Shown here: one piece after another, positions 1,620 through 27,263 of the stretch
Position numbering within the stretch: the first letter of the stretch is position 1
How the letters are laid out: every line of letters starts with the position of its first letter
From: Thermoplasmatales archaeon SW_10_69_26
GTDB lineage: Archaea > Thermoplasmatota > SW-10-69-26
Direction of reading: 5' to 3'
NCBI GenBank assembly: GCA_003009755.1
Contig: PXUB01000025.1
Coordinates: 14,205-78,204 of the forward strand
Length of the DNA: 64,000 nucleotides
The notes under the pieces: generated by a model
What the model saw: the letters and a program-made list of their open reading frames with translations, nothing else
Database searches by the model: none
What the model was told of the DNA's origin: nothing
Made by a program: the position numbers and the translations under genes

Positions 1620-2302
1620 TCAGGCAAAACGTCGACGCAGGAGTGTCGCTAGCGAGGGAGCCGGGACTGAGATCTCGCTGGTGGCTTCGTCGGGGAGCAG
1701 CGCCATCACGATGATGCCGCAGCCCAGGTGCCGAGCCCGATCCGTCCGTAGGCGTCGAAGATCGTGGAGTCGACCGGCAGGTCTCCGAGCCTGTCGATCT
1801 CTCGTTGAACGCCCGACTGGAAGGTTCGCCAAAGCCAGGCGAGTAGGAGCAAAGCCGCGCCGATGAGTTTCAGCGATCGTTGGCGCTGGGCGGCGGTGTC
1901 GAAGATGCCGCCCAAGGGGATCAACCCGACCGCGGCGAACCCGCCGATCAGGTGCACGAAGAATGCCCACGTGGCGACGAGCAACATGAGCGCGGCCGAC
2001 GAGAACCGCTCTCGACCCTCCTCGGCCAAGGTGCTCGTGGCCGGCATCTAGGCCAGCGAGAACCCGATCGGTACGAAGAACGCCCGGCCCCAGAAACGGG
2101 CTGTGCTCGGTATCAGGCCGACGAACGCGGCCGCGGGAATCGCTGCCGGGTCCGGTCTCAACAAGGCGTAGACGCCGAACGAGATGAACGCCATCCACGC
2201 GGCGGGCAGGTACTCGAACATCGGCTGCCAGCCAACCCCCGTGAGCTCTTGTACTTCGGCGAAGAGCAGGTGGTAGCCGTGTTCGTGCACGGCGCCGCGC
2301 AA
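1620..2302 (-). pseudogene. Disrupted multi-pass membrane protein
   Basis: ORFs 2048..2302 and 1706..2047 are in the same frame, separated by one TAG (2048-2050); the hydrophobic tail continues in another frame (LGCGIIVMALL) after ~1725. Confidence 0.55.
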
Positions 2303-2387
2303 GGGGAAAGCCCTCCTGGTCCCTCGTGTCTCCCGTCACCCAGTTGACGAACACGGTGTCTGTACGCTGGATGCCGGAGATGTATCC

Positions 2388-2685
2388 TCAGTGTACGTTT
2401 GCGTCGACGTGCATCATGTACTCGTCCCCGTCGCGCTCGCCGGTGACGAAGTAGTCGAACATCGCGCGGCCGAGGGTGACGAGCGCGGGGACCTCCTCGG
2501 GGATCCCGTTCTGATCGTTGAAGGTGTCCAGGTGGAGGACGAACCCGCTGGAGAACACGAACAGCAAGGCCAGGCCGAGGCCGAGCCCGGTGGCCAGTTT
2601 CTTGCAGGCGGCGCCGGACAGGCGCGAGGCATCCGGCTCGGGTAGGTTAGCCCTTCGGTTGGCTTCCTCGTCGCTGGCTTCCCAT
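2388..2685 (-). pseudogene. Membrane-protein fragment without start codon
   Basis: Unlisted minus frame reads WEASDEE...KKLATGLGLGLALLFVFSSGFVLHLD...MHVDANVH*, preceded by TGA. Confidence 0.35.
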
Positions 2686-2899
2686 CATACGCTTCCCGGT
2701 CGACGGAGCGAGCCCCACCATAGAGCGATGCAACGGGGTCGATCGGATTTCGCGAGTCCACCATCAGCGAGTTTTTCCTTGCTTTCTTTGAGATCCAACG
2801 GGCGAACAGAGGGTGTGCGCGGCGCCTTGGCGCTGGCCGTTTGGTTTCAGGGACCTGCTCTCCGGTTTCTGTATGCTTGGTCGCGTACATCCGGACGGG

Positions 2900-3082
2900 A
2901 TGGTTGGCGCCAGAGAGGAATTAGCGGCCATCGTTCAGGATCTCGGCGAAGCCGACGCGGAGTTGGTCCTGAGCTCCGTTCACCTGCTCCGGACTGAGAA
3001 CGGAAAAGCGGCTCGAGCTCTCCGTTCAGCACTCCTCGAGAGCCGTCGAGGAGGCCGCGACGGTGAACGCCCAGCACGTTGA
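2900..3082 (+). CDS. Small hypothetical protein (possible antitoxin-like remnant)
   Basis: MVGAREELAAIVQDLGEADAELVL amphipathic helices; C-terminus looks degenerate. Confidence 0.3.
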   Translation: MVGAREELAAIVQDLGEADAELVLSSVHLLRTENGKAARALRSALLESRRGGRDGERPAR

Positions 3083-3180
3083 CGGTCTCGCGTTCGAGGT
3101 GTAGCCCGACCGCGAGGAGGTGCGGGCGCCGGGAGGGGACACGGCCGTCCGGCCGGGCGATTGACCATTGTCAGACCGCC

Positions 3181-3681
3181 TCAGTCCTCGGCGGCTTCCT
3201 TGAGCCTCTCGTAGAGCTTCGGTGACAGGTAATAGCCGAGTTCGAGGAGTCGGTCCAGTCGGCGCTCGAAGCCCCCGCTCGTGAGATCGCCGCGGCGGGC
3301 AGACCTCAGCAACAGGAAGGGCGTGCTGACGGGCGAGAGGTCCAACGTCTTCGCCGCTTGGATGGCGGTCTTGTCGTCGAGGATCACCTCGTCGATCTCC
3401 CGTTCGAGGGCCAAGGCGAGCACGGAGGATTCCCCCTCGTGGATGTTGGCGAGGTTGTGGGGGAGCCGGTCGGGGTCGGCCTGGATGGGTTGGATCCGGC
3501 CTTGGTCGACGACCGTATTGATGAGGTCGATCTCGGCGTGCTGCTCGGGGTTGCGAGCCCGGATCTTGTCCAGAACGATCAGAGTGGTTGCGACAGGTTC
3601 GGGCAACAGATCGAGCTCGCCCAGCTTTCCCAGGAAGATGAGCGGAGAGGCGTTGACGACACTCTCGACGTCGGATCTCAC
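3181..3681 (-). CDS. PIN-domain toxin-like protein (DUF3368 family)
   Basis: VVNASPLIFL, HEGESSVLALA, VILDDKTA PIN motifs; overlaps the upstream antitoxin by 4 nt. Confidence 0.85.
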   Translation of the reverse strand: MRSDVESVVNASPLIFLGKLGELDLLPEPVATTLIVLDKIRARNPEQHAEIDLINTVVDQGRIQPIQADPDRLPHNLANIHEGESSVLALALEREIDEVILDDKTAIQAAKTLDLSPVSTPFLLLRSARRGDLTSGGFERRLDRLLELGYYLSPKLYERLKEAAED

Positions 3682-15606: not shown

Positions 15607-16905
15607 TCACTTCGGCTGCTCGGTGCCCCACGTCTCGATGGCCTTGGCCGCCTCCTTGCTGTCCTGCGTGATGGCGTCCAGGCTGTCGCCGCGCATCGTT
15701 CCGTCGATTACGTCGCGCAGGGCTTTGGCGCCGGCGGTGGAGCCGTCGGGGTGGCCGTGGATGCCGCCGCCGAGCTGGATGACGACGTCGGGCCCGTAGA
15801 GGTCGATCATGTCCGGCACGATTCCGGGGTGCAGGCCGCCGCTGGCGACCGGGAACGCCGGCTTGATCGAGCCCCAGTCCTGGCCGAGCAGGTTGTCGCG
15901 GGGATCGGTGTGGGCCTCGCGGAGCTGGTCCATGTTGGCGACGACCTCGTTCTCGGGGCTGACGAGCTTGCCGATGACGGTGCCGGTGTGGAGCTGGTCG
16001 ACGCCGACGAGGCGGAGCAGCTTCGCCAGGCAGTACATCGCCATGCCGTGGTCCTCGATCTTGGTGAACATCGCGTGCATGGCGCGGTGGGCGTGGATCG
16101 CCAGGTCGAGGTCGCCGGTGGCTTCGCGGATGGTTTGCAGGCCGGCGAACCCGGTCGTGACGACGTCCACCATCGCGTACTCGAACCCGTGCTCGGCCAC
16201 GAGGCGGGCTCGCTCGATCGCCTCGTTCGTCTCGGCGGTCACGTTGATCAACGCGGATTTGGTCTCGCCGGTCTCGGCCTCGGCGCGTTCGCGTTGGCGA
16301 GCCAGGTGCTCGACGCGTTTCGCGAAGTTGTTGAACGACTGGCTGGTGAGGTTCTCGTCGTCCTTGATCAGATCGACCCCGCCGACCCAGGCCTCGTAGC
16401 CGCGCTCGGCGTGCTGTTCGGGGGTCCAGCCGAGCTTGGGTTTGGGGACGGTCGCCGTCGGCGGGCGCTCGGGGATCCCCAGCTCGTCCCGGATGCCCTC
16501 GATGCCGAGGTGGGGGCCGGGGTGAGCCTCGCGGATCTCCTGGGGGATGCGAAGATCCAGCAGGCGCAGGCGGGCGACGGCCTTCATGCCGAAGATGTTG
16601 CCGGCGACGCCGCTGAGGATCTGGGGGACGTTGGCGGCTTCCCACAGCTCGACGGGGTAGCGGACCTTGCAGGTGCCGGCCTCCTCGTCCCAGTCGTAGC
16701 ACATCGCCTTCAGGTCGGGCACGCGATCCGGCATCTGGGCCAGCGTCGTCCACGTGCCCACGCTGGATTCGCTGGCGATGCGGCCGAGCGCCTCGAGCGT
16801 GCTGGTGTCCTCGTCCGGTGTGAACGAGAACAGGGCCAACAGGTCCCCATCACGCGGCTCCGCGTCCCGGTCCACGAACTCGTCGTACCACTCGGTCCCG
16901 GCCAT
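15607..16905 (-). CDS. rbcL: Form III ribulose-1,5-bisphosphate carboxylase
   Basis: ESSVGTW, GNIFGMK, KPKLG, GVDLIKDDENL, HAHRAMH, LHTGT-VIGKL, VASGGLHPG, GGGIHGHP all present. Confidence 0.95.
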   Translation of the reverse strand: MAGTEWYDEFVDRDAEPRDGDLLALFSFTPDEDTSTLEALGRIASESSVGTWTTLAQMPDRVPDLKAMCYDWDEEAGTCKVRYPVELWEAANVPQILSGVAGNIFGMKAVARLRLLDLRIPQEIREAHPGPHLGIEGIRDELGIPERPPTATVPKPKLGWTPEQHAERGYEAWVGGVDLIKDDENLTSQSFNNFAKRVEHLARQRERAEAETGETKSALINVTAETNEAIERARLVAEHGFEYAMVDVVTTGFAGLQTIREATGDLDLAIHAHRAMHAMFTKIEDHGMAMYCLAKLLRLVGVDQLHTGTVIGKLVSPENEVVANMDQLREAHTDPRDNLLGQDWGSIKPAFPVASGGLHPGIVPDMIDLYGPDVVIQLGGGIHGHPDGSTAGAKALRDVIDGTMRGDSLDAITQDSKEAAKAIETWGTEQPK

Positions 16906-17087
16906 GCGTCCATCTACGGGGTTCGCGCCTTTTGCGAGTGTCGGTGGCGGAACGGGCCCCGACCCGGCCCGAGCCCTCGAAAGGAGCTCTCCAAGCCATC
17001 CCTCGGAGGGACAGAGCCCAGCTGCGCGAGAGCGCCAGGACCCTCGGGGACAGGTTTATCCGCTGGGGTATCCCAAAAGGGGAGCGT

Positions 17088-18749
17088 ATGGATTCTGGCG
17101 GTCTCACTCTTTCTTGTCAGTTCATCGACCTCGATCTCGGGGGGAACCAGGTCGTCCTCCACGCCGACGACGCCGAGGAGATCGGGGTTCACCCTCAGCA
17201 CCGCGTGCACGTCCGGTTCGGCGACGAGAGCTTGGTCGCCGTCGTCGACACGACCTCCTCGGTCGTGGAGCCCGGTCGGATCGGGGTCTTCCCCGGCGTG
17301 GCCGACGACCTGGGCCTGGAAGCGGATGCCCAGCTCGAGGTGCAGCCGGCCGAGAAGCCCGAAAGCGTCGAGTTCATCCGGAAGAAGATGAACGGGCGCG
17401 AGCTCGACACCGACGAGATCGCGCGCCTCGTCGAGGACATGGTGCAGGGCTCGTTGACCGACATCGAGCTGTCGGCCTACGTGACCAGCGTCGAGATCCA
17501 CGACATGAACATCCGGGAGACGACGGACCTGACCCGGTCGATGGTGGAGACCGGCGAGGTCATCGACTTCCACGACCCGATGATCTTCGACAAGCACAGC
17601 ATCGGGGGCGTGCCCGGGAACAAGATCACGCTGCTCGTCGTGCCGATCGCCGCCGCGGCCGGTCTGCCGATCCCGAAGACCAGCTCGCGCGCGATCACCG
17701 GCGCGGCTGGCACCAGCGACGTGATGGAGGTCTTCTGCGACGTCAAGCTCACCGCCGAGCGGATCCGTTCGATCACGAACGACGTCGGCGGCGTCATGGC
17801 CTGGGGCGGCGCGGTCAACCTCGCCCCGGCCGACGACATCATCATCCGCGTCGAGCACCCCCTCTCGCTGGATCCGCGCTCGCTTCTACTGGCCAGCGTG
17901 ATGGCGAAGAAGCGGGCGGTCGGCGCCAAGCACGTCGTCATCGACATCCCGATGGGCCCCGGCTCGAAGATCGCGACGATGGAGGAGGCCAAGAGCCTGG
18001 CGCGGGACTTCATCGCGCTCGGCGACCGGCTCGGCATGCAGGTCGAGTGCGCGATCACCTACGGTGGCCAGCCCGTCGGCAAAACCGTCGGCCCCGCCCT
18101 CGAGGCCAACGAGGCGCTGCGCGCGCTGCGCGGCGACCCCGACGTGCCCGAGAGCTTCACGAAGAAGGCCACCGCGATCGCGGGCATCCTGCTCGAGATG
18201 GGCGGCCTGGCCCGCCGCGGGCGGGGCCAACAGGAGGCCCAGCGCCTGCTCGAGGACGGCTCGGCGCTCGAGACGTTCTCCGAGATCGTGCAGGCTCAAG
18301 GCGGCCCCGAGCCCGAGCTGCAACCGGTGGGCGACCACACGTGGGAGCTCGTCGCCGACAAGGACGGCTACGTCGCCGGCGTCGGGAACCGCGACATCGT
18401 GGCGATCACGCGCAGCCTGGGGGCGCCCAAGGTCAAGGGCGCCGGCGTCGAGCTGCCGAAGAAGGAGGGCGACAGCGTCGAGGAGGGCGAGACGCTGCTC
18501 AAGCTGTACGCCGAGTCCGAGTACAAGCTCGAGGCCGCCCGCAAGCTCGCGACGTCGAAGGACCCGGTCACCGTCGAGGGTATGCTGTTGGAGCGCGTCC
18601 CCGAGTTCCGTGAGATCGGTGACGAGCCCAGCGGACCCGGGCCCGACCCGTCCGCGGACGGCAACGGCGGGATCCGTCAGGTAGCGCCGGAGGCCGACGA
18701 CGACAACGAAGCGGACACCGAGGCCGAGACGGCCGCCGACGGCAGCTGA
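17088..18749 (+). CDS. deoA: AMP phosphorylase (archaeal thymidine phosphorylase family)
   Basis: N-terminal barrel extension, DKHSIGGVPGNK, PKTSSRAITGAAGT, NLAPADD; divergent from RuBisCO. Confidence 0.93.
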   Translation: MDSGGLTLSCQFIDLDLGGNQVVLHADDAEEIGVHPQHRVHVRFGDESLVAVVDTTSSVVEPGRIGVFPGVADDLGLEADAQLEVQPAEKPESVEFIRKKMNGRELDTDEIARLVEDMVQGSLTDIELSAYVTSVEIHDMNIRETTDLTRSMVETGEVIDFHDPMIFDKHSIGGVPGNKITLLVVPIAAAAGLPIPKTSSRAITGAAGTSDVMEVFCDVKLTAERIRSITNDVGGVMAWGGAVNLAPADDIIIRVEHPLSLDPRSLLLASVMAKKRAVGAKHVVIDIPMGPGSKIATMEEAKSLARDFIALGDRLGMQVECAITYGGQPVGKTVGPALEANEALRALRGDPDVPESFTKKATAIAGILLEMGGLARRGRGQQEAQRLLEDGSALETFSEIVQAQGGPEPELQPVGDHTWELVADKDGYVAGVGNRDIVAITRSLGAPKVKGAGVELPKKEGDSVEEGETLLKLYAESEYKLEAARKLATSKDPVTVEGMLLERVPEFREIGDEPSGPGPDPSADGNGGIRQVAPEADDDNEADTEAETAADGS

Positions 18750-23031: not shown

Positions 23032-24231
23032 TCAGGCGCTTTCGCCGCCCATGCGGGCGTCCGCGTGGGCGAGCGCGACGTCCGCGGCCTGATACAGCAG
23101 GTGCAGATCGGGCTCGGGTCGGGCGCGGGCGTAGTCGGCGAACTCGCCGCGCAGCGCCAACAGGTCCGCGTGGCCCTCCTCGACCGTGTCGGGATCGGCC
23201 CCAGGGCCCAGGTGGCGAGCGATCGTGGCCCGCAGGCGTTCGATCTTGACGGCGGCGAAGCCAGGCGGCATCGGGTTGTCGACGAGCGGCACGAGCTCGG
23301 GCTCGCCGCCCTCGCCGGGGGGGCCCTGGAAGCCGCCGGCTTCGAGGCCGCGGATCGCGTTCTCGAGGTGGGCGAGCTCGGGCGCCTCGTGGAGGGGCGT
23401 GGCCAGCGGTTCGCCGCAGGCGGCCACACCTTCGACGTCGAAGAGGCCGCGGCCGTCGCCGCGGAGGCCGTCGAGGAACCGGCGGGGCAGCGCCTCGCCC
23501 TCCTCGGTCTCCGCTTCGCGCCAGGCCAGCCGGGAGAGGTCGCCGACGGGCAGCTCGGCACGCAGAGCCAACGCCAGACCGGAGGGCGGCGGCGGATCGG
23601 GATCGTCGCCGGTGGGCCACAGGTAGCCGGCACCGCCACCGGCGAGCACGGTCGTCTCGGCGCGGTGCGTGGTGCACTCCTCGCCGTCGACGAGCACGGC
23701 CCCGGAGACGCCCTCCTCGGCGTCGCCGATCAAGCGCACGGCGACGGTCGTCTGGTCCACGGCGGCGCCCTCGCGCTGCAAGCGATCGAGGATCGCCTCG
23801 CGCAGGTTGCGGGCCCAGGCTTCGTCGTTGGGGACGTCCAGCTCCTCGAGCCACCGTCGGACGCGACGGGCGCGGAAGCCGAACACCTGGGCCTCCTCGG
23901 GGGCGGGAACCTCGCTGCGCTTGATGAGCTCGCGGGCCTGGGGCACCGGGTCCTCGGGGATCGGCGGGACGTCGGGGACGTCCTGGGCGCCCTGGACGAG
24001 CAGGCGGGTGCGGGCGCCCGATCGCACGGCGGCGAGGGCGGCGGCTGCGCCGGCCAGGTCGCCACCGACGACGAGCACGGACCGGTCGCGGGGACGGTCG
24101 GCGTCGGTCTCCTCGTCCGAGCCGAGGGTCATGCCGCCCAGCATGCCGCCGGGGCCTTCGCGGTCGCCGACGATGGCGCCGACGGCGTCCCCAGACGAGG
24201 ACGGCGACGGGTGTTGATCGGGGTCCGCCAT
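23032..24231 (-). CDS. Degenerate L-aspartate oxidase (NadB)-like protein, probable pseudoenzyme
   Basis: VLVVGGDLAG, TVLAGGGAG, GLALALRA, DVEGVAACGE, PLH and a C-terminal helical domain are colinear with NadB; catalytic motifs and capping domain missing; 4 nt downstream of nadA. Confidence 0.75.
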   Translation of the reverse strand: MADPDQHPSPSSSGDAVGAIVGDREGPGGMLGGMTLGSDEETDADRPRDRSVLVVGGDLAGAAAALAAVRSGARTRLLVQGAQDVPDVPPIPEDPVPQARELIKRSEVPAPEEAQVFGFRARRVRRWLEELDVPNDEAWARNLREAILDRLQREGAAVDQTTVAVRLIGDAEEGVSGAVLVDGEECTTHRAETTVLAGGGAGYLWPTGDDPDPPPPSGLALALRAELPVGDLSRLAWREAETEEGEALPRRFLDGLRGDGRGLFDVEGVAACGEPLATPLHEAPELAHLENAIRGLEAGGFQGPPGEGGEPELVPLVDNPMPPGFAAVKIERLRATIARHLGPGADPDTVEEGHADLLALRGEFADYARARPEPDLHLLYQAADVALAHADARMGGESA

Positions 24232-24235
24232 GCGA

Positions 24236-25363
24236 TCACGACCCGATCTCGAGCATGCGGTCCAGCGCGACGCGGGACCACTCGCGGTCCTCCTCGTCGA
24301 CGCGGACGCGGTTGATCACGTTGCCCTTGACCAGCTCCTCGAGCACCCAGGTCACGTAGTTGGGGTCGATCTGGCGCATCGCGTTGCAATCCAGGCAGGC
24401 GTCGCCGCACAGCTGGATGACCTGCTTGGCCTCGGGCGTGTTGCGCTGCAGGTGCTCGATGAGGTGCTTCTCGGTGCCGATCGCGATCGTGGTGTCATCC
24501 TCGGCCTCGTGCACGAAGTCGATGATCTGGCCCGTCGAACCGGCGAAGTCGGCGGCGTCGACGACCTCGCGCGGGCACTCGGGGTGGACGATGATCTCGC
24601 CGTCCGGGTAGCGCTCGCGCATGCCGGCCACGTGCTCGAGGGAGAACCGGTCGTGGACCTGGCACATGCCATCCCACAGGATGAAGCGGGCGTCCTCGAC
24701 GGCCTCCCGAGAGGTGCCGCCGAACTCGGGGTGCCAGGGGTTCCACTTCACCCAGTCCTCGTCGCGGAAGCCCAGGTCGTAGGCGGTGTTGTGGCCGAGG
24801 TGCTTGTCCGGCATGAACAGGATCTTGCGCCCGGAGTCCAGCGCCCACTCGAAGATCTCGTCGGCGCTCGAGCTCGTGCAGATCGCCCCGTCCATCCGGC
24901 CGGTGAAGGCCTTGAGGTCGGCGTAGCTGTTCATGTAGGTGACGGGCACGATCTCGTCGGGGTCGAGCACCTGGGTGAGGTCGTCCCAGGCTTGGCGAAC
25001 CTGCACCATCTCGGCCATGCCGGCCATCGGGCAGGCGGCCTCGCGGCTCGGGATGATGACGTTGCGTTCGCCGCCGGTAAGGATGTCGGCCGTCTCGGCC
25101 ATGAACGTGACGCCGCAGAAGACGATGTTCTCGACCTCGGCGTCACGGGCGCGCTTGGAGAGGGAGAAGGAATCACCCGTGAAGTCCGCCAGCTCGTAGA
25201 TCTCCTCGTGCTGGTAGTTGTGCCCCAAGATGAGGGTCGAGTCGCCCAGGCAATCGCGGGCGCGCTCGATGCGCTCGGCTCGTTCCCCCGGGCCCAGATC
25301 CCGGTAGGGTTCCGGTAGCTGGGCGAAGTGGGCGTACCGGAACAGGTTCAGCGTCTCGGCCAT
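24236..25363 (-). CDS. nadA: Quinolinate synthase
   Basis: ILGHNYQ, FCGVTFMAE, ACPMA, YMNS, CTSS, PDKHLG, CQVH, HPEC, CNAM (three cluster Cys). Confidence 0.95.
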   Translation of the reverse strand: MAETLNLFRYAHFAQLPEPYRDLGPGERAERIERARDCLGDSTLILGHNYQHEEIYELADFTGDSFSLSKRARDAEVENIVFCGVTFMAETADILTGGERNVIIPSREAACPMAGMAEMVQVRQAWDDLTQVLDPDEIVPVTYMNSYADLKAFTGRMDGAICTSSSADEIFEWALDSGRKILFMPDKHLGHNTAYDLGFRDEDWVKWNPWHPEFGGTSREAVEDARFILWDGMCQVHDRFSLEHVAGMRERYPDGEIIVHPECPREVVDAADFAGSTGQIIDFVHEAEDDTTIAIGTEKHLIEHLQRNTPEAKQVIQLCGDACLDCNAMRQIDPNYVTWVLEELVKGNVINRVRVDEEDREWSRVALDRMLEIGS

Positions 25364-25437
25364 CGCATGGAGCCAGCCGACCGGAGCCTAAAGGCGTTGG
25401 GTTGGGGGAAATCCGTTCGCCCTCGGGAGCGCTGGCT

Positions 25438-25492
25438 CGAAGAATTTTCGCTCGCGCCCGCGACCACGAAGCTGCCTGCGGTGGCAAGCTTC
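25438..25492. promoter_or_regulatory. Candidate operator sites in the nadA/sod divergent promoter region
   Basis: Imperfect palindrome CGAAGAATTTTCG (25438-25450) and inverted repeat GAAGCTGCC...GGCAAGCTTC (25468-25492). Confidence 0.3.
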
Positions 25493-25550: not shown

Positions 25551-26153
25551 ATGACTGACTACACGCTGGACGAGCTTCCCTACGACTACGACGCGCTGGA
25601 GCCCCACATCAGCGAGCAGGTGCTCAAGTGGCACCACGACCGACACCACCAGGGCTACGTTGACGGGTGGAACAGCGCCGAGGAGACGCTCGAGGAGAAC
25701 CGCGAGTCCGGCGACTTCTCTTCGAGCGGGTCCGCCCTCCGCAACGTGACCCACAACGGGTGCGGTCACATCCTGCACGCGCTGTTCTGGCACAACATGA
25801 GCCCCACCGGCGGCGACGAGCCCACCGGCGCGATCGCCGACCGCATCGAGGCGGACTTCGGCAGCTACGAGGCCTGGGAAGGTGAGTTCCGCGCCGCAGC
25901 CAGCGAGGCCTCCGGCTGGGCGCTCCTCGTCTACGACAGCTTCTCCAACCAGCTCCGCAACGTGGTCGTCGACAAGCACGACCAAGGCGCGCTCTGGGGC
26001 TCGCACCCGATCCTCGCCTTGGACGTGTGGGAGCACTCCTACTACCACGACTACGGCCCCGACCGCGGCGACTTCGTCGACGCGTTCTTCAACGTCGTCG
26101 ACTGGGAGGAGCCCCGCTCGCGGTACAAGCAGGCCGTCTCCCTGTTCGAGTAA
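25551..26153 (+). CDS. sod: Fe/Mn superoxide dismutase
   Basis: LPYDYDALEPHIS, WHHDRHH, HILHALFW, DVWEHSYY. Confidence 0.97.
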   Translation: MTDYTLDELPYDYDALEPHISEQVLKWHHDRHHQGYVDGWNSAEETLEENRESGDFSSSGSALRNVTHNGCGHILHALFWHNMSPTGGDEPTGAIADRIEADFGSYEAWEGEFRAAASEASGWALLVYDSFSNQLRNVVVDKHDQGALWGSHPILALDVWEHSYYHDYGPDRGDFVDAFFNVVDWEEPRSRYKQAVSLFE

Positions 26154-26170: not shown

Positions 26171-26214
26171 GGCCTCCCCGCGAGGAGAGGCCCGCTTTCC
26201 TCTTCTTCTCTTCC
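26171..26214 (+). terminator. Putative sod terminator
   Basis: GGCCTC...GAGGCC hairpin followed by CTTTCCTCTTCTTCTCTTCC. Confidence 0.55.
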
Positions 26215-26240: not shown

Positions 26241-27263
26241 TTAGCCGCGCTCGCCGGCGTTGAGCCCGGCGCGCTCGGCGACGTCGTACACCTCGGTGCG
26301 GGCATCGCGCAGCGAGGCGCGCTTGACGACGTAGCCCAGCTCGGTCAGCTTGCCGAGGCTCGATCGCACGGTGCGGGACGTGAGCCCGGACTGGCGAGCG
26401 ATCTCGGAGGGCGTCATCGGGCCCTCGTACTCCAACAGCTTGTAGATGAACCGGGCCGAGGGCGGGGCATCGGCCAGCTCGCTGCCGATCTCGCGTTTCA
26501 GCCGGACGCGGCCGAGCAGGTGGCCGTGCTCGCGCTCGGACAACCGCACCAGCGTCAGCCGGCGGCCGGTGCCCTTGATCGTGACGTCCTCGTCGATCGA
26601 GACCCGGCGGTGACCGTCGACGACGAGCTCGACGCCGGAGCCGCTCTCGGGGTTGGCCAGCGTGATCATGGAGGCGCTGGGCGACACGATCGGGGGATGG
26701 TCCTCCTCGCTGCAGACGGGCACGACGGTCAACACGTCGGCGGCGGACAGGACCGCGGGTCCGCCGGCAGACAACGCGTAGGCGGTCGACCCGGTCGGGG
26801 TGCACACGATCGTGCCGTCGCCGCGGTCGTGCCACAGCAGCTCGCCGTCGACCTTGACGTCGACGTCGAGGAACGTGCCGTTCTGCTGGGGCAACACGGC
26901 GGCCTCGTTGAGCGCCAGCCAGCGCTCGTCGCCGACCTCGCACTCCATGCGCAGCGTCTGCGTGCGCCCCGATCGACCCTCGGCCAGGGCTCGGGCGACC
27001 TCCTCGGCCTCGCCGGCCTGGGCCTCGGCGAGCACGCCCAGGCCCTCGTTGGACAAGAGCAGGACCGGCGGCGGGTCGGGCAGCTCGGCCAACCGCGACA
27101 GGAAGAATCGGGTCTCGCCGACGAGCGTCAGCACGTCGGTCTCGGCGTCGACGGCATCGGTGACGGTCAGCTCGTGCTCGGCGAACGCCTCCCGCACCTG
27201 GCCGCCGTCCTCGCGGGCTCGCTCGTGGGCCTCGACCGCGACGCGCACGTTCCCCGGGCACAT
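26241..27263 (-). CDS. NAD kinase-like domain fused to C-terminal winged-helix HTH
   Basis: ALNEA and GDGTIVCTPTGSTAYALSAGGP retained; GGDG replaced by VGETR; C-terminal PPSARFIYKLLEYEGPMTPSEIARQSGLTSRTVRSSLGKL wHTH. Confidence 0.85.
   Translation of the reverse strand: MCPGNVRVAVEAHERAREDGGQVREAFAEHELTVTDAVDAETDVLTLVGETRFFLSRLAELPDPPPVLLLSNEGLGVLAEAQAGEAEEVARALAEGRSGRTQTLRMECEVGDERWLALNEAAVLPQQNGTFLDVDVKVDGELLWHDRGDGTIVCTPTGSTAYALSAGGPAVLSAADVLTVVPVCSEEDHPPIVSPSASMITLANPESGSGVELVVDGHRRVSIDEDVTIKGTGRRLTLVRLSEREHGHLLGRVRLKREIGSELADAPPSARFIYKLLEYEGPMTPSEIARQSGLTSRTVRSSLGKLTELGYVVKRASLRDARTEVYDVAERAGLNAGERG

Follow-up and report, generated by a model that had tools for sequence, protein, structure and literature searches.

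What does a protein do that pairs the fold of a nicotinamide adenine dinucleotide (NAD) kinase, altered at its catalytic loop, with a DNA-binding domain? The question is raised by one gene in a 64,000-nucleotide stretch of contig PXUB01000025.1 from Thermoplasmatales archaeon SW_10_69_26, called the window here at its full length. The gene encodes an NAD kinase (NADK)-like domain fused to a DNA-binding domain of the winged helix-turn-helix type (wHTH; Table 1). With a probability of about 0.7, its product would be an NAD(P)-responsive regulator, dimeric or tetrameric, that acts on the nearby nadA operon and is kinase-dead in this clade. An earlier note on this DNA had proposed that the product regulates transcription and uses a pseudo-kinase domain to sense NAD or NADP. 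A separate NADK in the genome, linkage to nadA, co-occurrence of a DNA motif with the gene, and loss of the catalytic GGDG loop all speak for that proposal. We infer the identity of the ligand (NAD+, NADH, NADP+ or NADPH), the loss of catalysis, binding of the motif and the sign of regulation.

Pfam, AlphaFold2 and Foldseek bore out the architecture that had been noticed in the letters, an NADK fold with intact NAD-binding motifs and a C-terminal wHTH. PF20143, the NAD_kinase_C family, was matched at E 6e-22 (78.2 bits against a cut-off of 23.7). The wHTH matched HTH_24 over residues 273-312 (29.6 bits, cut-off 21.9) and MarR_2 over residues 279-322 (28.9 bits, cut-off 27), and thus a MarR-like winged helix lies above its family cut-off; HTH_11 reached 22.3 bits, below its cut-off of 25. 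The N-terminal NADK model of Pfam, PF01513, gave no match in the protein, although the NADK fold is present nonetheless. Among the NCBIfam NADK equivalogs, the highest score was 88.8 bits, to a model whose cut-off is 326; all cut-offs lie between 211 and 493.

The AlphaFold2 model, built on a 30-row alignment, had a mean predicted local distance difference test score (pLDDT) of 89.3 and a predicted template modelling score of 0.72. In it, residues 7-240 form an NADK body of two domains, residues 247-257 are a disordered linker, and residues 268-328 make up a winged helix of three helices and a beta-hairpin. Linker and wHTH together extend about 90 residues beyond the NADK body. When the model was compared with the PDB using Foldseek, the top of the list comprised NAD kinases throughout (7mh7, 8kgc, 2i1w, 1suw, 1u0t and 1yt5, among others; E ~1e-21), with template modelling scores to the target of 0.67-0.83. 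GTG 27248 and GTG 27329 are alternative starts, the latter giving the longest open reading frame (ORF), and in the alignment most homologues begin at the residue equivalent to GTG 27248.

The same architecture was found in at least 77 further proteins, at 32-86% identity, and in 35 more cluster representatives. Because of this recurrence, the fusion is neither a chance arrangement nor a frameshift artefact. A PPSA...RTVR...SLRDAR signature in the wHTH is invariant across phyla: from Thermoplasmatota to Thorarchaeota and Nitrososphaerales, the recognition helix always has RTxR and the wing SLRDAR. Homologues at E <= 1e-25 occurred in 19 of 301 sampled genomes of the phylum, that of the window included, and the carriers come from no more than five families, four within the same class and one other. 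Outside Thermoplasmatota, fusions were identified in one metagenome-assembled genome (MAG) of Thorarchaeota (locus L004) and one of Nitrososphaerales (L005). These were the 2 fusions among the 80 matches listed in a contig search with the motif words TPTGST/SAGGP, the other 78 being ordinary NADKs. A word search with residues 252-335 returned no more than 16 close fusions. Homologues from Thermoplasmatota MAGs are named in databases as 'NAD+ kinase', 'NAD(+)/NADH kinase', 'MarR family transcriptional regulator' or 'winged helix-turn-helix transcriptional regulator'.

Alignment with HMMER to the VGGDG of Archaeoglobus NADK (1suw/1z0s) confirmed that GGDG has been replaced, V48-G49-E50-T51-R52 taking its place with Thr51 opposite the catalytic Asp. 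In PMC9763689, the GGDG Asp is described as the catalytic centre, facing the 2'-OH, and adenine, ribose and nicotinamide are recognized by the NE/D motif together with Thr and Tyr of conserved region II. The NAD-binding motifs of the window protein are N119-E120, G148-D149-G150 and T155-PTGSTAYALSAGGP-169. N119, E120, D149, G150, TPTGSTAY (T155-Y162), G167 and G168 were invariant in the alignment of homologues.

The status of the loop was then compared across 120 aligned homologues, leaving out the truncated proteins P0082 (stand-alone) and P0070 (fusion). GGDG was present in 41 of 41 stand-alone NADKs and in 1 of 77 HTH-fused proteins; a survey of GGDG status and domain architecture had been asked for in the earlier note. 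The sole exception, P0075, matched the query over 64% of its length, grouped with the NADKs in a tree, and looks chimeric. For the clade of the window protein the loop is GE[TS]R in 13 proteins, GDTR and GASR being its other forms. That of the main Thermoplasmatota clade is GD[NST]x, with Asn, Ser or Thr at the Asp position, and four low-G+C members have GDD[RS]. The NE, DG and TPTGSTAY...GGP motifs were kept in essentially all fusions and the GGDG loop was not; therefore, the NAD pocket is conserved and the phosphoryl-transfer loop is not.

The fusion is not the only NADK of its genome, the circumstance under which its proposed role had been said to fall. In the assembly (2.82 Mb in 49 contigs, 95% complete), three NADK_C loci were identified. 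A canonical NADK on contig C3 (L001) contains VPVGGDGTILW and scores 241.6 bits to the archaeal NADK model NF002255. It directly follows an IMPase/FBPase-type, NADP-phosphatase-like gene (genes at 254-1108 and 1120-1917), and as separate genes the pair matches the bifunctional NADP phosphatase/NAD kinase model NF010678, one gene to each half. The third locus encodes a 372-residue NADK-like paralogue with GGDG. A separate, better-scoring NADK_C locus also occurs in G029, G080 and the Thorarchaeota genome; none was seen in G046, which is 89% complete.

The regulator gene is linked to NAD synthesis by its position. On the minus strand of the window the order is regulator gene, nadA, FAD (flavin adenine dinucleotide)-binding ORF, and the last probably shares a transcript with nadA. 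Within the class, nadA is present in all 21 genomes and the fusion in 14. In 10 of these 14 carriers, nadA lies at most about 1.2 kb downstream on the same strand (the window genome, G000, and G046, G113, G128, G052, G103, G029, G093, G076 and G123). It lies 15 kb away in G108 and on another contig in G007, G058 and G064. At the Thorarchaeota locus the regulator gene is divergent from nadA, with 139 bp between them. In a second family (five genomes), nadA is unlinked, and a major facilitator superfamily (MFS) transporter gene is convergent to the regulator gene (L108-L112). An MFS/Sugar_tr transporter gene (1835-3229, minus strand) is divergent from the regulator gene on the Nitrososphaerales contig. 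For the transporters found where nadA is not adjacent, a niacin (vitamin) carrier is one possibility, offered as a thought only.

A 13-bp palindrome-like box was found in every nadA upstream region linked to the regulator gene. The family consensus, GGMAR-N3-YTKCC, was scanned in the 250 nt upstream of nadA. It was matched exactly in 13 of 18 carriers and at one mismatch in 17 of 18, and in 0 of 6 non-carriers; G064, where nadA follows nadC, and G027, whose relevant copy was not included, were left out of the carriers. Random 250-nt intervals gave 15 exact matches in 4000, and 366 in 4000 at one mismatch. The site is present in G007, G058 and G108 despite their unlinked genes. G070 has an exact match and no fusion was found in it, on a contig that ends 420 bp upstream of nadA.

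In the window genome, the distal box cGAAAATTCTTCg is a diverged variant of the family palindrome. At the corresponding position (~-87), its three closest relatives show GGAAAATTCTTCC, tGAAATTTCTTCC and tGAAATTCCTTCC. The four carriers of the family-level group all have two GAA-N5-TTCC boxes, at ~-87 and ~-55 and 31-32 bp apart, the second of which abuts a conserved core resembling a transcription factor B recognition element (BRE) and TATA box. Two sister genomes without the regulator gene retain the BRE/TATA core and lack both boxes. Given the short distance from this core to the nadA ATG (Table 1), the nadA mRNA would be leaderless or near-leaderless. The exact core GAAANTTCTTC has 2 copies in the 2.8-Mb genome, counting both strands, and one of them is the distal site. 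G052 and Thorarchaeota likewise have two sites, with a distance of ~29-31 bp between them, and in the neighbouring family weak second half-sites are seen at +31.

A palindromic operator requires a dimer, and solved NADKs are dimers or tetramers. A homodimer model of the window protein with two NAD molecules scored 0.45 in three runs (0.44-0.46), compared with 0.00 for the best of three controls; among solved structures, that value was reached by 20 of 30 one-chain pairs and by 1 of 23 single-chain proteins. The runs agreed in at least 80% of contacts, with a partner pLDDT of 81-82. The predicted interface comprises residues 138 and 156-198 of the NADK C-domain. This result may reflect no more than the likeness of the model to solved NADK dimers.

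Taken as a mechanism, these data suggest that an archaeal NADK was duplicated and that the copy acquired a small wHTH of archaeal origin at the C-terminal end. In this lineage the copy would have lost the catalytic GGDG loop while the dinucleotide pocket and the NADK dimer interface were kept. The product would be a one-component transcription factor, with the NADK-derived domain as sensor and the winged helix as output. A dimer would read GGMAR half-sites through the RTxR helix and the SLRDAR wing, and two dimers, perhaps joined as a tetramer, would sit beside the nadA promoter on boxes spaced by three helical turns. In the genus-level group, these sites would be the GAA-N5-TTCC boxes that lie closely upstream of the BRE/TATA in the nadA-(nadB-like) operon. 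When a pyridine nucleotide fills the pocket, DNA binding would change, and with it the transcription of nadA and the nadB-like gene, so that de novo NAD synthesis would be tuned to the NAD(P) pool. Feedback logic predicts lower nadA transcription when NAD(P) is plentiful.

Several observations weigh against this reading, and those on the loop would fit a bifunctional enzyme-regulator, as are RbkR, NadR and BirA. Such a protein would phosphorylate NAD through E50 or another residue and also regulate nadA, and its substrates and product (NAD, ATP, NADP) would set DNA binding. An acidic residue directly follows the invariant Gly in 73 of the 77 fusions, and Asp stands at the catalytic (third loop) position in 30 of the 35 wider fusion relatives, 3 of which have GGDG and 4 GGD[SR]; residual or altered kinase activity is therefore possible. 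The fusion of the Nitrososphaerales MAG, with VGGDR, is that genome's only NADK_C match above cut-off, albeit in an assembly of just 1.3 Mb. An archaeal kinase-wHTH fusion with its activity kept is also on record, namely RbkR (PMC5397151). The same paper, however, gives RbkR as the only RibK in 96 of 119 genomes, whereas a canonical NADK accompanies the window protein. Its loop, G-E-T-R, has lost the Asp and the glycine on either side of it; in the main Thermoplasmatota clade the Asp is likewise missing. PF01513 is not matched and the NCBIfam NADK scores fall far below their cut-offs. Bifunctionality is accordingly judged unlikely here, and, given a regulator of nadA, a sensor without kinase activity is clearly favoured for the window protein. 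The fusion family as a whole may include active, bifunctional members, among them wider relatives with the catalytic Asp, and the clade of the window protein would be its degenerate end. The term 'pseudo-kinase' used by the earlier note would thus fit this clade, where the loop is lost, and not necessarily the whole family, most of whose wider relatives keep the Asp.

Further points against a NAD(P)-responsive regulator of nadA concern the operator and the tree. The consensus was defined after sight of the sites and the carriers are kin, so that the counts overstate independence. The window genome is the sole carrier to fail at one mismatch, its distal box having two, at outer positions. Within the 64-kb window, the core motif had 1 match against 0.22 expected, and at least one match arose in 18 of 100 shuffles. 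A weight matrix built from sites of families f2 and f5 and of Thorarchaeota did not place the window site among the top 25 in the genome; the top sites (C15:19655, C31:22366, C1:110723 and others) have neighbours without an evident NAD link. In the window, the region upstream of the regulator gene showed no site, and nadC and nadX showed no convincing one; the regulon may therefore be a single operon. Finally, the node uniting the fusions in a FastTree phylogeny had a support of 0.078.

Site position adds another such point. In f1 and f2, the family of the window genome and its neighbour, the strong site lies ~50 bp upstream of TATA, which is not the classical position of an archaeal repressor. 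In f24, the second family, a single site lies ~13 nt upstream of TATA, and the Thorarchaeota sites abut both TATA boxes, with two copies between the divergent genes. Site position gives no clear verdict between activator and repressor.

Could the gene and the boxes have no regulatory link at all? The synteny would then be inherited, the AT-rich box would be a promoter element of nadA, and the wHTH would serve another purpose. The carriers are indeed kin; in a genome of 70% G+C, the f1 box shares its richness in A and T with promoter elements; and the motif is not significant in the window alone. The motif differs from a TATA box, however, in being a palindrome with G/C arms. It is still there in G007, G058 and G108, whose genes are unlinked, and another phylum has it twice in the space between the divergent genes. 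The sister genomes without the regulator gene keep the BRE/TATA and not the boxes. Taken together, these data make the absence of a regulatory link very improbable.

Other candidate sites were considered. A scan of the genome with the f1 core at one mismatch gave 19 more places, of which 12 were inside ORFs and none was beside a recognized NAD gene. The loose pattern GGCARNNNYTGCC was not enriched genome-wide, with 7-42 sites per genome and strand, fewer than for a reversed-pattern control. On contig C15, the stretch from nadC to nadX contains GGAAATTTTC elements that are AT-rich; they were not counted as operators, as they differ in spacing and lie in a tandem repeat. This repeat (C15:15796-16200) has four ~97-bp copies, each with a GGAAATTTTC- or GGAAATCTCC-type element, and sits between nadX and a membrane-protein gene beside nadC. 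A strict GGCAATCCTTGCC site in G058 lies after an RbkR-like gene (L165 438-1121, plus strand) and before an unrelated small gene, and is probably a coincidence; the gene was judged RbkR-like by eye, from an HTH and a riboflavin-kinase-like N-terminus. At three f24 loci (L108, L111 and L112), a conserved perfect inverted repeat, GGTTGCCCGG-N-CGGGCAACC, lies ~60-90 nt upstream of the regulator gene. It has TTGCC/GGCAA arms in everted order and could be an autoregulatory site or a hairpin. A scan for sigma-70 promoters found no match, which is irrelevant to an archaeon.

The identity of the signal has also to be weighed. The pocket might sense something other than the NAD(P) pool, such as ATP/ADP, ADP-ribose, nicotinic acid adenine dinucleotide or another dinucleotide, or it might act as a Rex-like NADH/NAD+ redox sensor with nadA as one of several targets. 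The effector is not readable from sequence, and the change of Asp to Thr, with Arg52 in the loop, could alter the surroundings of the 2'-position. A superoxide dismutase gene (sod) lies between the regulator gene and nadA in the window genome and shares the box-bearing intergenic region. Nevertheless, the residues that recognize the adenine, ribose and nicotinamide of NAD are invariant, and the conserved partner is nadA and not redox genes, sod being found at this position only in the window genome. Genome scans yielded no convincing further sites, which argues against several targets. Sensing of another ligand is thus a rather doubtful alternative, and an NAD(P)-responsive regulator of the nadA operon is preferred.

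The origin of the fusion was approached through both of its halves. In a FastTree phylogeny of the NADK domain (120 sequences), the 77 fusions fell in one clade with no stand-alone NADK inside, and the sister of this clade was the canonical NADK of the window genome itself. A profile of the linker and wHTH, searched against 1.84 billion representatives, gave 2032 matches at E <= 1e-3 and 593 at E <= 1e-10, the latter being fusions, small stand-alone wHTH proteins and fragments. Among the best 150 matches, 145 were new: 35 were fusions of 300-400 residues, 97 had no more than 140 residues, 11 were of intermediate length (mostly fusion fragments), and 2 exceeded 400 residues. The closest relatives of the fusion's DNA-binding domain are small stand-alone archaeal wHTH proteins (~80-130 residues) with a PPSA...RTVRYA...D.RQ signature and no sensor domain, although some short matches may be gene fragments. 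These proteins are probably the donor family of the wHTH. Examples at L166 1453-1740 (minus strand; sister genome G088, 95 residues), L167 and L168 show PPSA...GPLT...RTVRYA...D.RQ, as in the fusion. The wHTH matches in the non-carriers G088, G118 and G070 were considered as truncated fusions and rejected in favour of small stand-alone paralogues.

Among known systems, the protein shares with NAD kinase (NadK/PpnK; PF01513 + PF20143; 1suw, 2i1w, 1u0t and 7mh7) the two-domain fold, intact NE, DG and conserved region II (TPTGSTAY...GGP) motifs, and a C-domain predicted to dimerize. Unlike NAD kinase, it has GETR for GGDG, carries the extra linker and wHTH, lacks a PF01513 match, and is far short of the NADK equivalog cut-offs. 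By catalytic motif and by these curated models, it does not qualify as an NADK enzyme.

In its logic, the protein has its nearest analogue in RbkR (PMC5397151), an archaeal one-component regulator that joins a cofactor-pathway kinase to a MarR-like wHTH. [quoted passage not shown] The two differ in that the RbkR kinase has the unrelated, CTP-dependent RibK fold, and in that the wHTH is N-terminal in RbkR and C-terminal in the window protein. RbkR is also active and usually the only RibK, whereas the window protein has lost its loop and coexists with a true NADK. NadR, NiaR and NrtR (PMC2330245 and PMC2330246) and Rex follow the same logic, with an enzyme-like or nucleotide-binding effector domain, and control nadA, nadB or nadC. 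NrtR, a Nudix-derived sensor with a winged helix acting on NAD genes, is the closest bacterial parallel (PMC2330246). None of the Nudix, 3H, NMNAT/AAA_28 or Rex domains was among the 20 Pfam matches of the window protein at E <= 1, in agreement with the earlier view that it is distinct from NadR, NiaR, NrtR and Rex.

The known regulators of NAD synthesis, NadR, NiaR, NrtR and NadQ, as well as Rex, are bacterial, and the window protein is archaeal. A full-text literature search, with most subscription journals, RegPrecise and InterPro outside its scope, found no description of an NADK-wHTH regulator or of an archaeal NAD regulator. The protein is most likely an enzyme-derived, one-component regulator of cofactor synthesis, of an NADK-derived kind that would be previously undescribed as far as this literature goes.

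Table 1. Coordinates, in the window, of the fusion gene, its domains and motifs, the candidate operators and the neighbouring features.
Feature	Position	Strand	Remark
NADK-like/wHTH fusion gene	26241..27263	-	340 residues from ATG 27263
N-terminal NADK-like alpha/beta domain, ~residues 1-117	26913..27263	-	NADK-like fold; no match to PF01513
Degenerate GGDG site V48-G49-E50-T51-R52	27108..27122	-	Thr51 at the catalytic Asp position
NAD_kinase_C domain, residues 118-229	26577..26912	-	Pfam PF20143
NE motif in NAD_kinase_C domain	26904-26909	-	
GDG...TPTGSTAYALSAGGP in NAD_kinase_C domain	26757-26822	-	
Linker, residues 247-257	26493..26525	-	Low confidence (AlphaFold2); between sensor and DNA-binding domain
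Winged helix-turn-helix, ~residues 262-330	26274..26480	-	Pfam and model
Terminator-like hairpin	26182-26202		
Fe/Mn superoxide dismutase gene (sod)	25551..26153	+	Between regulator gene and nadA
Distal candidate operator cGAAAATTCTTCg	25438..25450	-	86 nt upstream of nadA ATG
Proximal candidate operator GAACGGATTTCC (GAA-N5-TTCC)	25407..25418	-	31 bp from distal; abuts BRE
Conserved promoter core CCAACCCAACG-CCTTTAGG (BRE/TATA-like)	25387..25405	-	~27 nt before nadA ATG
nadA (quinolinate synthase), proposed target	24236..25363	-	PF02445, E 4.5e-94
Short FAD-binding protein gene after nadA	23032..24231	-	399 residues; weakly like L-aspartate oxidase (NadB)

Among the neighbouring genes, the FAD-binding protein scored 36 bits to L-aspartate oxidase models, whose cut-offs exceed 450. 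A reduced NadB is one possible identity, even with the aspartate dehydrogenase NadX encoded elsewhere in the genome (contig C15). Shorter versions of this protein (260-360 residues) follow nadA in relatives. The intergenic region that sod shares with the candidate boxes is 187 bp long, and co-regulation of sod might be conceivable. Elsewhere in the window, a form III-like RuBisCO large subunit gene (15607-16905, minus strand) is divergent from a thymidine/AMP-phosphorylase-like gene (16932-18749, plus strand). We take these two to be the gene pair of the archaeal AMP salvage pathway. The proteome of the organism is acidic, and the sequencing runs in which this DNA occurs carry the label halite metagenome.

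A wider proposal can be put forward tentatively, with slightly less than even confidence. The fusions may form the first dedicated family of archaeal transcription factors for NAD homeostasis, and an evolutionary series from probably bifunctional to kinase-dead members. The series would start with GGDG or xxD kinase/regulators, in some lineages maybe the only NADK, and would end with the GDNA and GETR sensors that stand beside a true NADK in Thermoplasmatota. The NADK oligomer would have been kept, and a tetramer could bridge two operators 31 bp apart. The change of Asp to Thr or Asn, together with Arg52, may have retuned the pocket from the substrate NAD to the product NADP(H).

If the regulatory role is true, the window protein would be the first dedicated regulator for archaeal NAD metabolism. 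NAD kinase would join the enzymes recruited as ligand sensors, next to Nudix in NrtR, RibK in RbkR and biotin ligase in BirA. The family would offer a natural series of pseudo-enzymes in which to study how a catalytic pocket becomes a sensing pocket. Database names would be corrected, 'NAD+ kinase' and 'MarR family regulator' each being half right. A compact DNA switch that binds NAD(P) would also be a starting point for an NAD(P) biosensor.

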